From assembly GCA_963796455.1 (NCBI GenBank), contig CAWCLO010000001.1, forward strand, positions 768,001-832,000: DNA of 64,000 nucleotides. The letters are read 5' to 3'. The position numbers were made by a program. Below are positions 39,001 through 45,000 of this stretch, in pieces. The stretch is from Candidatus Sulfomarinibacteraceae bacterium (GTDB taxonomy: Bacteria; Acidobacteriota; Thermoanaerobaculia; Thermoanaerobaculales; Sulfomarinibacteraceae). Numbering within the stretch: position 1 is the first letter of the stretch; every line of letters starts with the position of its first letter.

Positions 39001-42000
39001 CGAAGCATGGCTTCCAGATCGGGCGCCGCCACCGCCTTGACCTCGACCAGCCCCGAGTGGACCTTTTTCAATTGCAGACGAGCACGAGTGATGATCCCCA
39101 ACTGTCCAAAGGAGCCCAGCACCGCGTGAAAAAGCTCGTTGTCGCTGCCGGGCGAGATGGTCACGGCCTCGCCGTTCGGCATGACCAGATCGAATTCGAG
39201 GCAGTGTTCACCGATGGTGCCGCGTTGCCAGTTGTTTTTGCCGTGGACATTCATCGCCAGGGCGCCACCGATGGTGGGCTCCATGGTTCCGGTGACCACC
39301 GGCGGCCACCAGCCGTCTGCGATGGTCATCCGCCACAACGCGCGCAGGCTGACCCCCGGTTCGACATCCACGATGCCGGTCTCGGGTTCCCAATCGAGAA
39401 CCCTGCCCAATTGCGAACAATCAAGCACCACCGATTCTGCGCGGAGGGCCGCGTCGCCATAGGAACAACCGGAGCCCCGCAGCACGACCGAAGTGCCGGA
39501 TGTTCGAGCGGCCTCGAGCGCCTCGGCCACCCCGGCCGCATCCTGCGGTCGGTAAACATAGCCGGCTGCTCCGACAGCCATGCCCCATCCTTCGACCCAT
39601 TCGACACGTTCTGCGCTCAACATCTTCAAATCCCCAACCGGGTGAAGATGAACGAAGGAATCGATCGGATAATGGTCATCACCACCCGCCAGCGGGCCGG
39701 AACATAGGCCGTCACCACACCTCGTCGCGCCTTTGTCAGGATGATCTCGGCGGCGCGATCGGCCGAAATCAGCCAGAAAAGGCCTTCCTTGCCCCGGGTC
39801 ATGGGGGTGTCGACAAACCCGGGTTTGATCGTCACCACCCGGACTCCCAACCGCGTGACCCGATTCCGGAGCGCCTCCAAATAGGCGTGGAATCCGGCTT
39901 TTGACGCGCAGTAGACCGGGTTGGGCGCCCGTCCGCGATCTCCAGCCACCGAGCCGATCCCGACGACCGTTCCCTGGCCGAGGCGCGCAAAACGATCGGC
40001 GGCTGGGTTGAGCCATGCAACAGCGCCCAAGAAATTGACGTCAATCATCTGTTGATCTTTGTTTGTATCGAACTCATCCGGCGCCACCTCCGGCATCGCG
40101 CCGGCAGCGTAGATCACCAGATCGAGACCGCCGATCGCGCGCGCGATTTCCTGAAAAAGCTCCGGGATCTCTTGCCTTGAAATGACATCGTGGGTGATCG
40201 CCACCGCGCGATCCTCACCGGCGGCAGAGTTGATGTCATCCATGATGGTGCGCAGCTCGTTTTCCCGGCGCGCCACCATCGCCACGCGAGTGCCACCAAC
40301 TGCGAGCCGGCGCGCCAGCGCCTCGCCAATCCCCGACGAAGCTCCCACCACCAGGGCATGTTGGAATCCGAACTCAGCCACACGCTCCTCCTTGGGCCAT
40401 CATCATGACGCCTCTAGGATTATCCCACGACCCGAAATCGGCGTTGATCCGGTGATCTGACCAGATCAGGCCTCGGGCTCGTCGACCAGCAGCGTTAAAC
40501 CCGCTTTTTCCTCGGCGACCAGGGCGTCGTAGGCCGCACCGGAGACCCTTTTCTGCAGCTTGTCCGAGACTGCCAGAACCATCGGGAAGCCTTCCCAGCC
40601 GAGTTGCTCACCGCTTTTTTCGATCACCACCCTGCCGTCGGCTATGAGGCTGCTCGCCTCGGCCAGCGGACGCCCGGCAAACAGGGATTCCAGGGTCTGG
40701 ATGACGGCTTCGTGGTCGGGATTGAGAAACTGGACCCGGCGACGGCTCTGGATCGCCACGTGATAGCTGGCCGGGACATAGTAGATCCCGTCGAGTTCGA
40801 GAATTTCGGCCACCGCCACCAGCAGTCCAAAGACGTCTTTGAGCAGCCCCAAGCCGGGGTGATTCTGACCGGGAAGCTGTTGTTGGTAGGGCCCGAAATG
40901 AGCCCGTGGGTTCTGCAGCAACAACCACTCGATCACGAGCATCTCGCACCCGCTGACCACCCGAGCGCTGCGGTTGACTCGAAGCTCCACCAACAGCTCA
41001 CGGTGATCCGGATGCGAGTAGACGCGGAGCGTGTCGCCGATGCTGCCGGTGAGATCGACCTCGACCGAGGGGTGGCGGAAACCCCGCAAACGAAGCTGAT
41101 CGAGCAACCCAAGGCGTTCCAGAAGCAACTCGATTCCGTGCTGCGAAAAGTGCCCGAGAAACCGCGTTCTGCGCGGCGCTTCCGGAAGCACCCCCACCAG
41201 ATCCTCCTCGGTCAATTGCCATGCAAAGCCCGACGGCTCCGACGTCAGATCCGAAGGATTGATCGAACTGCGAATCCGTCTGAAACGGCGAAGAATCATC
41301 TCGGCATTGTCGGGTGTCCTGGCCACCGTTCCGGAAATCAGCCAGGAAAAGAACCTCGCACTGTAGCGCCAACTGCCGCCCCCATAACCACCTGCGAGAA
41401 CGATGACCAGGGGAACCCGCCGACGCGCCCGCCGCAGGAGCTCGACCACCAACCGGTCGCGACGGAACATCCCGTCAGCAGTGATTTTCCAGTTCCCGAG
41501 TTTGTCGTCGATGGCCGGGTCCGTGCCCGCTACGTAGATGACCAGCCCGGGCCGAACCTTCGAGCCAACATCAGGGAGAGTCTTGAGCAGGGTGCCGAGA
41601 TAGACCTCATCACCGACCTCGTCACCGAGGGCGATCGAGGTCGAGGCCTCGGCCTCTGTTTCGCTCCAGTGATGGTTGTGAACCGAGTAGGTATGAACCG
41701 TTGAGTCGTGAGCAAAAACCTCGCGGGTCCCGTTGCCGTCGTGGATATCGAGATCGACAACCAGGATGGGTTCTTTGAAGCCCTTGGCCCGCAGCCGCGC
41801 GATGGCGATGGCGATATCGTTGAAAATGCAGAAGCCCATGCCCTTGTCGCGCGAGGCGTGGTGGAAGCCGCCACCGAGGTTGATGGCCACCGATCTGCTC
41901 TGAAGGGCCAGACGCGTGGCCAGAATCGTCCCGCCCACTCCCACCCGTTGGTGGTCGATCATTCGCTCGGCATCCGCATCGCTGATCTTCTCCCCGAAAA

Positions 42001-45000
42001 TCCTCTCGGTCACCGCAGGGTCTTGACCGATAGCATCCACATATTCGGGGTCGTGGACCCGCAGCAGGCTGCGCACCGCCGGTCGCCGGGGAAGCGAGAT
42101 GTCATCGCGATCGAGCAGCCCCTCGTCGACCAGAAAACCGAGGATCTTCGCCCCCCGCATCGGATCGAGAGGCGCCCCGTCAAGGGTTTGTCCATAGAGA
42201 TCGTGGTAGATGAAACGAACCGACGAGGAGGACCACCGCCGCCTGATTTGCCGCCAGCCCCGCCGGAAGGCGCGACCAAACCGCATGATCGGGTTCACCG
42301 GCGCGGGATGGGTGTCCATGGGGAAAGGATAGTCCGAGAATGAAGAATTAGGAATGAGGAATTCGAAGTTCGGAGTTCGGAGTTCGGAATATTGAGGTTT
42401 GAGTTTATCGAGGGCACCGGTCTGGCTAGAGCTGCTCGATCTTGTAGCCTCGCGATTTGAGTTCGCTGATCAGACCCTTTTCTCCGACAAGATGGAGGCC
42501 GCCTACGACCACGAGGGCATCGGTGGTGCCCGCAAGGAGCATTTCGATCGGCACCATCCACTCCTGGTTGCGGTCGCTCACCATTTTCGTGAAAACGGTC
42601 GGAAACTCCTCGAAACCGTCCAACAACAGCTTCTCGACGGGTTCCACCTCCCCCACTCTCCAGTGGGCCGAGAGCTCATCGAGCTCCGCAATCATGGACT
42701 TCAAATCGACCAGGGTGTACTCGAGGAAGGCGAGGCTCTGCTCCGCCGTCAGATCGGCAAAGAGACTGACTTGAAAATCAACGGTTTCAAGGGGCACGCG
42801 GTCTTTTCCGTCCTTGCCCGCGCGTTGCGAGAAATAGGAGTCGAGACCCTTTGCCGGCAGATACCCTGCACCCATCATCTCGAGTACGGTGAGGTTGAGC
42901 GCAGCCATCCACGGCTTCATGACCTGGAACATCTCCGCAGGGAAGCCCTTCGCATCGAGGTGGCTCTTGAAATCCGCCCAGATCACGGGCCCGACCAGCG
43001 TTTCCAGACGTTGCCCGTCTGCGAGGCTTCCGGCCGCCAGCATCTTCGCGGCTGCAGTGTTCATCTCGTCGAGATTGACCTCGAACACGACCGTATTGAC
43101 GGCGTCGTAGGCCTTTTCCATCGCTGCGGGCAACGGATAGGATTCCTCTTTCATCGCGTGAATCGATCCCAACAGATACACCGAAGCAGTTGGACTCGAA
43201 GCACGCCAGAGAAAAGTCTTTTCAGCCGCGGTCGCCGGAGCCGGCGCCACCAGCACCGCTCCCCCGAAACCCAAAACCGCCAGCGACACCATCAACATTC
43301 GATTGCTCATCAATCCTCCCAAATACCAAAACCAGTGTATCGGCCTCGAGGCCTCGCGCCGCCCATCTGCTGAGGATTTACCGATCTTTGACGTGGCTGG
43401 GACAAGGCGGGGACCGCATTTTCTGCTGCATGATATGGTGTATCAACGACGATCGAAACTGTCCACTACGGGAGAAATACTTATGGCAAACCCCAGTGCG
43501 AAATTTGAAACATCGATGGGAAATTTTACGGTCGAGATCTTTCTTGACGAGATGCCGACGACGGCGGGCAACTTCATCGCCCTCGCCAACGACGGCTTTT
43601 ATGACGGGCTCCATTTTCACCGCGTCATCAAAAAATTCATGATCCAGTTCGGGTGCCCGCACTCGAAGGATCCGGAAAGCTCGCGGGCCGGCACCGGCGG
43701 ACCTCCCCATGGCACCATTGCGGACGAACATCTGGAGAACGCAAAATTCTCGAACGAGCCGGGCACCCTGTCGATGGCGAACACCGGCCGCCCCAACAGC
43801 GGCGGGTCCCAGTTCTTCATCAACACCGCAAAAAACAGCTTCCTCGACTGGTTCAGCGCTGGGCAATCCAAACACCCGGTCTTTGGCAAGGTGACCGAGG
43901 GCATGGATGTGGTGCAGGCTATCGAGGCCACCAAGACCAATGCCCAGGATCGACCTCTGACCCCGGTGAAGGTGGAGAAGATCACCATCAGCACCTAGCG
44001 AGGCAGGATACTGGATGCTGGATCACTGCTGTCCAAAACAGATGGTCATGAAGTTTCCCACCTGACAACACGTGGTTTACGGGTTGGTTTTTGGAAAACC
44101 CAGTTCGCGGTTGCCCCGTGCCCGTGTCCGCGTCCGAATTACAGCGGCAGCGACAGTGTCCAGCGTCAGCGACAGGCAACAGCGAACAGGGACAGCGGTC
44201 AGTGTTCAGCGACGGAGAGCAGCCGCAGCGATCAGGTGCAGTGACGGCGTAGCCACCTCCGGGTCGTTCAACAGGAAGGGGTAGCCGGTGGGCGGCCGCT
44301 CGTGACGTGATGAAGGTCTTCAATCAGGTCCGTGCCATGACCCGGCGACTCTTGGGCCCGAAGAAGTGAGTGTTGAACGCGGATCGCTGGCGCTGATCAC
44401 TGTCGCTGCCGCTGATTCCTGTCCGCTGTCGCTGAATTCTGTCGCTGTCCCTGTACGCAATCCGAGACTCTGTCTTGGACAAGAGTGATGCTGGATTCAT
44501 TGAGATCGTAGATTCACGTTATAGCTTATCAACGGTCTTGTGCGATGGAATTCAATTCCTAATTCCTAATTCTGAACCTATTCCTCGAGATTGAGAGCAT
44601 CCTTGGCGAGTTGTTTCGCGTACTCCATGGGCTCGGGGAGATCGGTGTTCTCGACCACGTGCCACTCGACGCGGTGGTGCTTCGAAAGCTCGTCGAGGCG
44701 CTGCCACAGATCGCGGTGCGAAACATCCTTGCCATCCCGGGTCTTCCACCCGCGGTCCTTCCAACCCGGCACCCAGGCGGTCGCACCATCTTTGAGGTAA
44801 TCGGAGACCGTATAAAGATGGACCCGGACCTGCCGTTTGAGTTCTTCAAGACCCGCGATCGCTCCCAGCAGGTGCATCCGGTTGGGTGAGGCCCCCGGGG
44901 ATCTCCCGCTGAGACCCTTTTCTTCGTCGCCGAAACGCATGACCAGGCCCCACGTGCCAGTCTTTTTCTTTCCCGAATATGCGACGGCCGTGAAGAGATG

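Follow-up and report, generated by a model that had tools for sequence, protein, structure and literature searches.

Bacterial class IV deacylases have been described by structures and in-vitro chain preferences, and no physiological substrate or regulator is known from the accessible parts of the two reports concerned (PMC11532494, PMC13325672). Leptospira HDAC11 (9gz5), Chlamydomonas HDAC11 (9rje) and Vibrio HdaH (9gkv/9gky) are single-domain proteins, while the class IV deacylase encoded at the present locus bears an extra domain of 284 aa, here called domain X. The fold is shared (TM 0.81–0.88 by target), and, as far as the available text of PMC13325672 and PMC11532494 describes these features, so are the Zn site, the His pair, the Tyr, GGGFHH without RPP, the Phe gatekeeper and the lack of the clade A Arg–Glu bridge; the deacylase here differs in having Gly for the clade B Glu94, xPLD for HPFD and an Asp after the Zn-binding His.

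It has been reported that mycobacterial ICL2 carries a C-terminal GNAT-fold domain of about 165 aa that acts as an acetyl-CoA sensor, is attached by a flexible linker and re-pairs upon acetyl-CoA binding (PMC6788997, in the part available). Like domain X, this domain is fused to an enzyme and has no sequence likeness to known GNATs; domain X differs in its length, its predicted rigid packing, its free-standing relatives and its position on a deacylase, and the two are connected by a structural match (E 1.7e-4; Z 7.3) with no demonstrated sequence homology. Bacillus AcuA, AcuB and AcuC, which act on AcsA, likewise combine a GNAT with a classical Zn deacylase, but according to the available portions of PMC13121692 and PMC11532494 AcuC belongs to cluster 2 (class I-like), AcuA is a canonical GNAT and all are separate proteins, unlike the fused deacylase–X. 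Domain X resembles this system in that 5 genomes link it to an AMP-forming acyl-CoA synthetase and 2 have a separate HDAC gene beside it; unlike in Bacillus, no AcuB-like or acs gene lies near the gene in the window, the 64,000-nucleotide stretch analysed here. NatD/Naa40, AtaT, TacT and the Elp3 KAT domain give the best Z-scores against X (7.3–9.1), a match of fold only at 10–15% identity, and neither an antitoxin gene nor a ribosome link was shown for X. In the accessible part of PMC8556138, the motif-B Tyr is essential for the activity of RimI, YiaC, YjaB and PhnO, and activity is seen in GCN5 and PCAF with Phe in its place.

The fused gene and its deacylase domain

An earlier note had described one 617-aa gene that joins an intact HDAC11-like deacylase to a C-terminal domain named by no library, and the open reading frame, the PF00850 match and searches of Pfam, NCBIfam and PHROGs bear this out (Table 1). 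Of the 80 best loci in the genomes, 76 have the HDAC motifs and X in one frame, and the others are cut by a contig end (3) or frameshifted (1). Both domains are under purifying selection, with dN/dS of 0.10–0.18 against four close relatives; domain X gives 0.11–0.16, like the deacylase. In the full-length model, rigid packing of the deacylase against X is predicted (pTM 0.91, both domains). The N-terminal helix is possibly a membrane-binding amphipathic helix.

Table 1. Features of the deacylase–X gene, in window coordinates.
Feature	Position	Strand	Description and evidence
Whole gene, 617 aa	40466..42319	(-)	Class IV Zn deacylase and GNAT-fold domain X (by the model) in one frame; ATG start
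Arg/Trp-rich N-terminal helix, residues 10–29	42233..42292	(-)	Helix H10-29 in the full-length model; sequence
HDAC11-like deacylase domain, residues 33–329	41333..42223	(-)	PF00850, E 4.7e-51; Foldseek 9gz5; PDB sequence matches 9rje, 9gz5, 9gkv
149-GGGFHH-154	41858..41875	(-)	Catalytic His pair and Phe152 foot-pocket gatekeeper, no RPP; alignment; same hexapeptide in human HDAC11 (PMC11532494, available part); gatekeeper from PMC13325672 (available part)
189-DLDIH-193	41741..41755	(-)	Zn ligands D191 and H193; invariant, 138/138
D267	41519..41521	(-)	Third Zn ligand; 138/138; aligned to the Leptospira HDAC11 motif
309-AGGY-312	41384..41395	(-)	Catalytic Tyr312; Y in 136/138
Domain X, residues 334–617 (284 aa)	40469..41320	(-)	Unnamed family; predicted GNAT core ~388–587 plus extra helices; structure model and structural searches
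485-QNHPGLGLL-493	40841..40867	(-)	Motif A, CoA pyrophosphate loop; Q485 137/137; register set by aligning profiles with 71 ordinary GNATs, P 0.004–0.017
516-PASYHVAIQSRRRVQF-531	40727..40774	(-)	Motif B; H520 at the canonical Asn, S525 at the Tyr position of free relatives; alignments and profile alignment

The deacylase domain matches PF00850 over residues 50–316 with 174 bits against a cut-off of 27.9, and its arginase–deacetylase fold is matched by 9gz5 in Foldseek (E 4.5e-23, TM 0.88 by target). The Asp-His-Asp Zn ligands, the His pair and the catalytic Tyr are all present, and each catalytic residue is kept in 136–138 of 138 full-length homologues (H153 138, H154 136, D189 138, D191 138, H193 138, D267 138, Y312 136); the domain is apparently a working class IV, cluster 5 Zn deacylase. 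The GGGY motif of the earlier note needs correction, since this protein has AGGY, position 309 being A in 67 and G in 66 of the 138. A GGGFHH-type motif, the mark of a long foot pocket, stands in place of RPP, a criterion taken from the available part of PMC11532494, and the gatekeeper at position 152 is F in 102/138 and L in 31/138. As in HDAC11 clade B, there is a Phe/Tyr gatekeeper and no Arg–Glu bridge (A/T/L/S at position 123, A/M at 127), and the clade A traits of a Thr/Ser gatekeeper, a loop 1 Arg and an Arg–Glu bridge are missing from the domain. The HPFD loop and Glu94 of clade B are also absent; xP(L/M)D stands instead, and G109, found in 110/138, aligns with the Gly of 9rje and 9gkv. 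The fused deacylases lie, in a quick tree, outside the group made up of ordinary enzymes of clades A and B.

Fold and family of domain X

No family of Pfam, NCBIfam or PHROGs is named for residues 334–617; for 40 members of X, no Pfam match scored meaningfully (E 0.007 at best, each from a single member), and NCBIfam named no family on 60 members. In the ESM Atlas, unnamed clusters of 272–276 aa stand at 0.96–0.97 and the nearest named ones, of PF00583, at 0.79–0.80, which is a lead only. The GNAT fold proposed in the earlier note is upheld by the C-domain model (pLDDT 93.7), by Foldseek, in which the ICL2 C-domain is the best of 15 matches at E≤0.001, and by the Z-scores in VIA, which at 7–9 are modest (NatD 8.4–9.1; AtaT, Elp3 and ICL2 7.3–7.4). 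It is very improbable that this likeness reflects a common beta-alpha arrangement and that the function of X is unrelated: such Z-scores do lie within the range that the search tool calls common, identity is 5–17%, and two X profiles matched no PDB chain by sequence at E 10, but acyltransferase-type folds fill 50/50 listed rows in one structural search and 49/50 in another, in addition to the Foldseek matches, and the conserved loop of X aligns to motif A over 30–50 columns, ungapped or nearly, where reversed and HDAC control profiles fail to align (P 0.21–0.38).

The Q-x-x-P-G-L-G loop, which had been assigned to the CoA-binding position, is likewise placed at motif A by profile alignment; an earlier one, built on 11 GNATs, lacked depth (P 0.013–0.023). 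In this register P488 corresponds to the canonical Arg/Gln, G491 to the canonical Gly and L493 to the canonical Gly/Ala, and P-G-L-G-L-L thus departs from the consensus R/Q-x-x-G-x-G/A with Pro for R/Q and Leu for G/A.

Fused and free forms of domain X

The near-core distribution noted earlier holds, with the X–deacylase in 19/20 genomes of its own family, 14/16 of the sister family and 44/151 of the class. The claim that the domain occurs only in PF00850 frames of 580–1,030 aa is correct within the class and fails beyond it. What is new here is that X is not confined to the deacylase fusion: it makes up a large family in its own right, unnamed and of acetyltransferase fold, some of whose members are free or have other partners. 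X is present in 132/201 Myxococcota genomes, of which 43 have two matches, fused and free where checked, both forms having been read in 5 closed myxobacterial chromosomes; the own and sister families carry the fused copy only. Free X stands alone, adjoins a separate HDAC gene (2 genomes) or adjoins a GDSL hydrolase, and in 5 genomes, from two families, a long-chain acyl-CoA synthetase shares its reading frame with X of the free type. Among 33 matches a GDSL–X fusion was seen only in the one protein, 12 close relatives being free (293–301 aa), and it is therefore probably a lost stop. Viral contigs, plasmids and PHROGs hold no relative of X, hence no sign of a mobile or toxin–antitoxin role.

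The fused gene has no conserved operon among 80 loci; the commonest next genes are TraB (13) and Smr (11) upstream, and a DprE1-like cluster (15) and glycerol-phosphate acyltransferase (9) downstream, and the neighbours in the window are TraB, SDR and a DprE1-like oxidase. Neither the window gene nor any HDAC-fused locus examined has an acyl-CoA synthetase gene nearby; a deacylase of this subfamily is missing from the five synthetase-fusion genomes, four of which give a best E of 1e-39 to 1e-49 and one no match, and no HDAC gene occurs within ~5 kb at 20 Myxococcota loci, one of which is itself a fused gene truncated where its contig ends. A genome-wide pairing of free X with a subfamily deacylase was rejected: the 13 free HDAC matches (E 1e-73 to 1e-81) are ordinary clade A/B enzymes, and 20 other free-X genomes have distant HDACs or none.

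Fused forms make up one side of one branch (support 95 in FastTree, 94 in IQ-TREE quick), and the fusion looks like one old event. The motif-B Tyr was lost on the branch leading to them: Tyr occupies position 525 in 30/32 free X, in 0/105 HDAC-fused X, a count that the branching makes a single evolutionary event, and in 2/264 HDAC-bearing database proteins. In 100/105 fused forms it is replaced by Ser, Ala or Gly, not Phe. The Leu-Tyr of free X falls on the GNAT motif B Leu-Tyr, and S525 on the general-acid Tyr of helix alpha4 (RimI/YiaC/PhnO type), in a profile alignment that is weak (P 0.0055, probability 6.6%, with two gaps of one residue) and made without superposition. Position 493 is Gly, Ser or Ala in 28/32 free forms and Leu in 61/105 fused ones, this protein included. 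In a search with the ordinary-GNAT profile, free forms take 7/10 of the best-matched rows and 37/166 overall.

Other residues are retained in the 105 fused forms (Q485 105, P488 104, G489 105, G491 105, H520 97), so a ligand site is preserved; conservation within fused X is highest at Q485 and the glycine-rich loop, which fits a nucleotide-type ligand. E464 (84/105), placed by the model, without superposition, on the strand preceding motif A, is a candidate general base, and W465 (105/105) and an aromatic residue at 519 are also kept. In 4 related Myxococcota genomes of one lineage, fused X has lost the CoA loop and everything after beta5, with the deacylase, free X and the N-terminal half of fused X retained. 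Inter-domain covariation in 300 sequences gave clade signal only.

Candidate roles of the fusion

To the computed features, namely the intact deacylase site, GNAT fold, conserved motif A loop, rigid packing and Tyr loss, the tentatively preferred reading adds CoA-ester binding, allostery and a substrate, all of which we infer. An active deacylase would carry an acyl-CoA-sensing pseudo-GNAT as in ICL2, probably within an AcuA/AcuC-like switch on acyl-CoA synthetases. The attached X would bind acyl-CoA, would no longer transfer acyl groups efficiently and would serve as a built-in sensor setting deacylase activity by the cellular acyl-CoA or CoA level, much as ICL2's GNAT-like domain does for isocitrate lyase. 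Since other bacteria join free-type X to an AMP-forming acyl-CoA synthetase, such enzymes would be the likeliest to bear the acyl-lysines that serve as substrates. Acyl groups would be put on by free X, which has the Tyr, and taken off under regulation by the fused form, in a switch like that of AcuA/AcuC/AcsA for chains that include acetyl or are longer. Sensing is likelier than acyl adding, since a catalytic residue seems to be lost in attached X and kept in free copies. The top Foldseek match, the sensor of ICL2 (role from PMC6788997, available part), is in line with this, but the active enzyme NatD outranks ICL2 by Z-score.

The earlier note had favoured a writer–eraser, with a sensor as the fallback; the fallback now fits better, and the writer–eraser, though the less likely of the two, keeps a real chance. 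It would have X active through E464 or H520 in place of the Tyr, the same acyl group being added or removed according to acyl-CoA/CoA. The retention of motif A, E464, W465 and H520, a dN/dS like that of the deacylase, the rank of NatD, the Tyr-less active GNATs known from the available part of PMC8556138 and an ordinary HDAC+PF00583 fusion frame in one genome (G007) argue for it, as does the fused-only state of the own and sister families, where no free X could do the writing. Against it stand the kind of Tyr replacement, the motif-A Leu, the deleted CoA loop and the free X retained beside fused X in many myxobacteria. A structural or substrate-docking module, which would cap or stabilise the deacylase or present its substrate, with the CoA cleft reused for something other than sensing, is unlikely. 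The rigid packing predicted by the model and the N-terminal half kept by the lineage without the CoA loop agree with it, and the peptide-binding Glu of clade B HDAC11 (PMC13325672, in the part available) is missing, so that the substrate may be held by another part; the high conservation of the glycine-rich loop and Q485 in fused X and the joining of X to an acyl-CoA synthetase speak against it. An RNA-modifying role, to which structural matches with AtaT, Elp3 and TmcA might point, has no support beyond one synteny, greB and PIN-PhoH adjoining free X in one clade.

A bolder proposal, which we regard as doubtful, is that X represents an unreported family of enzymes that acylate protein lysines with medium or long chains. 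These would be the writer so far missing for the HDAC11-type erasers of bacteria, and would use the product of AMP-forming acyl-CoA synthetases to acylate those synthetases themselves. In such a fatty-acyl switch across Myxococcota, Acidobacteriota and Gemmatimonadota, the window protein would be the one-chain writer–eraser, or an eraser whose degenerate writer acts as sensor.

The literature searched, with most subscription papers outside the search, gave no description of the deacylase–X fusion or of X. No new principle is involved, as both a GNAT-like CoA sensor and pairs of GNAT with deacetylase are already known, but the family offers a candidate regulator on the same chain as a class IV deacylase, and the synthetase fusions point to a candidate substrate class. 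Free Tyr-bearing and fused Tyr-less X, often in one genome, form a natural pair, which makes the question of enzyme or sensor directly testable. The sequencing runs listed include no RNA holder, and contigs compared with the gene did not span it; Anaeromyxobacter, Vulgatibacter and Thermoanaerobaculum are among the named holders, so cultured hosts exist.

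Architecture of the gene and fold of its C-terminal domain

The fusion gene encodes a protein of 617 aa, whose numbering is used here, in which PF00850 covers residues 50–316 (E 4.7e-51 in a Pfam search of the whole protein) and residues 334–617, referred to here as X, match no family in Pfam, NCBIfam or PHROGs. Among the relatives of X, any one Pfam family was matched in at most 1 of 40 members, and no NCBIfam family was found among 60 members. At least 481 genome matches were confirmed from at least 594 candidates, and the best 80 loci were kept; the deacylase motifs and X share one frame in 76 of these 80, the other loci being cut by contig ends (3) or frameshifted (1). 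The deacylase is thus really joined to the C-terminal domain in one chain, as the earlier note had stated. Both halves have a dN/dS of 0.10–0.18 against four close relatives.

The AlphaFold2 model of X (149 sequences) has a pLDDT of 93.7 and a pTM of 0.89. Foldseek ranks the ICL2 C-terminal domain highest (E 1.7e-4) among 15 matches at E ≤ 0.001, and VIA-align against 48,161 chains places NatD first (Z 8.9, rmsd 4.0, 147 aligned), followed by AtaT (Z 7.4), TacT (7.3) and ICL2 (7.0), with acyltransferase folds in 49 of the 50 rows listed; a repeat gave NatD at Z 8.4–9.1 and acyltransferase folds in 50 of 50. Since Z values below 8 are common according to the tool's own warning, weight is placed on the uniformity of these lists rather than on single scores, and it is this uniformity that bears out the GNAT fold proposed earlier. 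A profile of 71 ordinary GNATs also aligns with X from motif A through beta5 (P 0.004–0.017, against 0.21–0.38 for reversed and HDAC controls). In this register, P488 corresponds to the canonical Arg/Gln, G491 to the canonical Gly, L493 to the canonical Gly/Ala and H520 to the motif-B Asn, and the Leu-Tyr of forms lacking a deacylase in frame ("free" forms) to the motif-B Leu-Tyr. The pTM of the full-length model is 0.91, so fixed packing of the deacylase and X is predicted.

The neighbouring genes in the window (TraB, SDR, DprE1-like oxidase, S13 peptidase) are lineage-specific and give no functional clue. The downstream pair of a DprE1-like FAD oxidase and a DprE2-like SDR, here in a non-actinobacterial host, scores below the NCBIfam thresholds, at 287 against 500 bits and 140 against 250 bits. 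Short intergenic tandem repeats of 7 bases, (TTCGGA[AG])n, form 118 arrays genome-wide, with 38 on contig C1 versus 0 in the shuffle, and one array lies directly upstream of the fusion gene; arrays of 6–8 bases of other sequence are likewise frequent in the genome.

Coordinates of the fusion gene and of other features mentioned in the text
Feature	Location	Strand	Remark
Deacylase–X fusion gene	window 40466–42319	−	617 aa
DprE1-like/DprE2-like pair	window 38208–40381	−	
Protein with two RNase H stretches (PF00075)	window 44578–45474	−	298 aa
(TTCGGA[AG])n arrays	window 36785–36818, 42358–42388, 62802–62889		
Second PF00850 gene of the source genome	L164 (G000:C5:73243–74121)		RPP-type (class II-like), without X
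X–synthetase frame	L181:3184–6042	−	also L293–L296; 5 genomes in all
Deacylase–PF00583 frame	L265 (G007:C33)		1,016 aa, without X

Range and genomic contexts of X

The X family comprises 883 representatives at 50% identity. Within the window's family, 19 of 20 genomes have X, and in the one without a match the deacylase half lies where a contig ends. The counts are 14 of 16 genomes for the sister family and 44 of 151 for the class; X was also found in 7 of 101 Gemmatimonadota genomes (frames of 586–742 aa), 18 of 151 Acidobacteriota genomes and 132 of 201 Myxococcota genomes, a tally that takes in the unpublished G185 and includes 43 genomes with two matches. The claim that X occurs only in long frames bearing PF00850 holds within the class, where X is always single-copy and in long frames except for one gene whose parts lie at two contig ends, but fails elsewhere, where free X genes of 267–357 aa with their own start were read. 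Five closed chromosomes (G114, G146, G163, G190 and G203) each carry one fused and one free X.

A separate deacylase gene with 38% identity to the N-terminal domain of the fusion protein overlaps the start of free X in both G525 and G472, and the gene run in G525 reads acyl-CoA dehydrogenase, MeaB, dephospho-CoA kinase, deacylase and X. Members of one family have a GDSL hydrolase gene ahead of X, adjacent in 2 cases and in frame in 1. Free X of one myxobacterial clade (L113–L122, L132, L194, L195) lies in a conserved run of greB, X, PIN/PhoH, DUF493, methyltransferase ... dnaK; greB is present at 10 of 20 loci examined, and X of this clade keeps the Tyr and has lost the His in several members. 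In a second clade (L125–L129, L192), free X is followed by a small unnamed gene and is convergent with the rplQ–rpoA ribosomal operon.

In G571 and in all four genomes of one genus (g171), X forms the N-terminal part of a frame that continues into an AMP-forming long-chain acyl-CoA synthetase (PF00501 + PF23562). The linkers vary in length with the frame kept; the synthetase has its own Met and a GGAG-type ribosome site in the four g171 genomes, so these genes may be fusions in which translation can also start internally. His-Asn-Ala-x-Leu-Tyr is kept in the four readable g171 fusions, and G625 has a frameshift further along the synthetase. At their C-terminal end, the synthetases have a TP[ST]LK stretch, whose Lys is presumably the acylated catalytic residue of the synthetase family. 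Of the 41 relatives examined, 7 carry X, namely these five and 2 others with X fused to the deacylase.

No description of X or of the deacylase–X fusion was found in the literature searched, and the supplement of PMC13325672 may hold further members. A survey of bacterial deacylases is based on catalytic domains; its supplement contains a Thermoanaerobaculum aquaticum entry (positions 59–338) that may belong to the deacylase–X family. Neither the pairing of writer and eraser nor CoA sensing by a GNAT-type domain is new in principle; the literature searched does not contain the unnamed family X, the branch of it that lacks the Tyr and is fused to a class IV enzyme, or the link of X with acyl-CoA synthetases. 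The distant deacylase joined to PF00583 in G007 carries an ordinary GNAT unrelated to X.

The deacylase domain

Among 138 full-length homologues, H153, D189, D191, H193 and D267 are invariant, and H154 and Y312 are each present in 136. The closest solved structures by sequence are 9rje, 9gz5 and 9gkv, and by structure the model agrees with Leptospira HDAC11 (TM 0.88 by target). This deacylase has GGGFHH in place of the RPP motif, a feature by which the available part of PMC11532494 distinguishes cluster 5 enzymes, those with a long pocket. Judged by sequence, the clade marks are mixed: compared with HDAC11 clade B as described in the available part of PMC13325672, the Phe gatekeeper and the lack of an Arg-Glu bridge are shared, whereas the peptide-binding Glu is Gly109 here (in 110 of 138 homologues) and HPFD is xPLD. 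The same part of that source reports that basal clade B enzymes prefer acetyl over octanoyl and that clade A enzymes have no activity on peptides. A quick tree built from 58 deacylase domains places the fused deacylases outside the group that ordinary enzymes of clades A and B form. One Myxococcota group of fused deacylases (L107, L110–L112, L133–L149, L151, L152) has DLDAHPPDG, with two Pro after the Zn His replacing HQGNG; other groups have HDGNG or HDGDG at this site.

Fused and free forms and the possible function of X

Fused and free forms were compared using genome-derived sequences below 80% identity, namely 105 fused (the window's included) of 128 and 32 free of 37. Duplicates of the window or of loci taken again with longer flanks (L001, L083, L165–L175), L002 (no match), L049 (frameshift), L128 (cut), L181 (synthetase fusion, with Phe at position 525) and frames that are not fused and lack a closed 5' end were left out; the free set takes in L177, with GDSL in frame, and L187, which adjoins a deacylase. 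Q485 is invariant in both sets, H520 is present in 97/105 fused and 27/32 free forms, and E464 in 84/105 fused, with Glu/Asp there in 23/32 free. Tyr at position 525 occurs in 0 of 105 fused versus 30 of 32 free forms, the fused ones mostly having Ser (42), Ala (33) or Gly (25), and among database proteins bearing the deacylase part, only 2 of 264 have the motif-B Tyr. At position 493, 28 of 32 free forms have Gly, Ser or Ala; the 105 fused ones mostly carry Leu (61), Ala (27) or Ser (14). The fused forms make up one side of one branch (support 95 in FastTree with 137 rows and 94 in IQ-TREE quick with 51 rows), and thus the loss of Tyr counts as one event, not 105. The fused side includes one secondarily free member, likewise without the Tyr; the split form L187 adjoins this side with weak support.

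A free, Tyr-bearing GNAT using acyl-CoA would have come to adjoin a class IV deacylase gene, the two genes would have fused, and the fused X would have lost its Tyr but retained the CoA loop. The simplest model to work with, which we put at somewhat short of an even chance, is an eraser with a built-in acyl-CoA sensor, for which ICL2 offers a precedent: its GNAT-like C-terminal domain binds acetyl- or propionyl-CoA and activates the attached enzyme (available part of PMC6788997). The earlier note had read the protein as a candidate writer-eraser in one chain, with an acyl-CoA sensor as the alternative. According to the available part of PMC8556138, the motif-B Tyr is required in RimI, YiaC, YjaB and PhnO, but GCN5 and PCAF have Phe instead; with E464 and H520 kept in the fused form, and with the window's order having no free X copy for writing, an active writer-eraser is a possible, though less probable, alternative to the sensor. 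In four genomes (G162, G038, G153, G172; L200–L203) the fused protein is 487–495 aa long and lacks the CoA loop together with all that follows beta5, with the deacylase intact and a free X also present. That X serves as a docking or structural module seems unlikely.

For the sensor-bearing eraser, the substrate would be an AMP-forming acyl-CoA synthetase, because X is itself fused to such synthetases. These enzymes are classical targets of GNAT/deacetylase switches, such as AcuA/AcuC acting on AcsA (available parts of PMC11532494 and PMC13121692). Against this substrate, no acyl-CoA synthetase gene lies near any deacylase-fused locus examined, and the synthetase-fusion genomes contain no deacylase of the fusion protein's subfamily.
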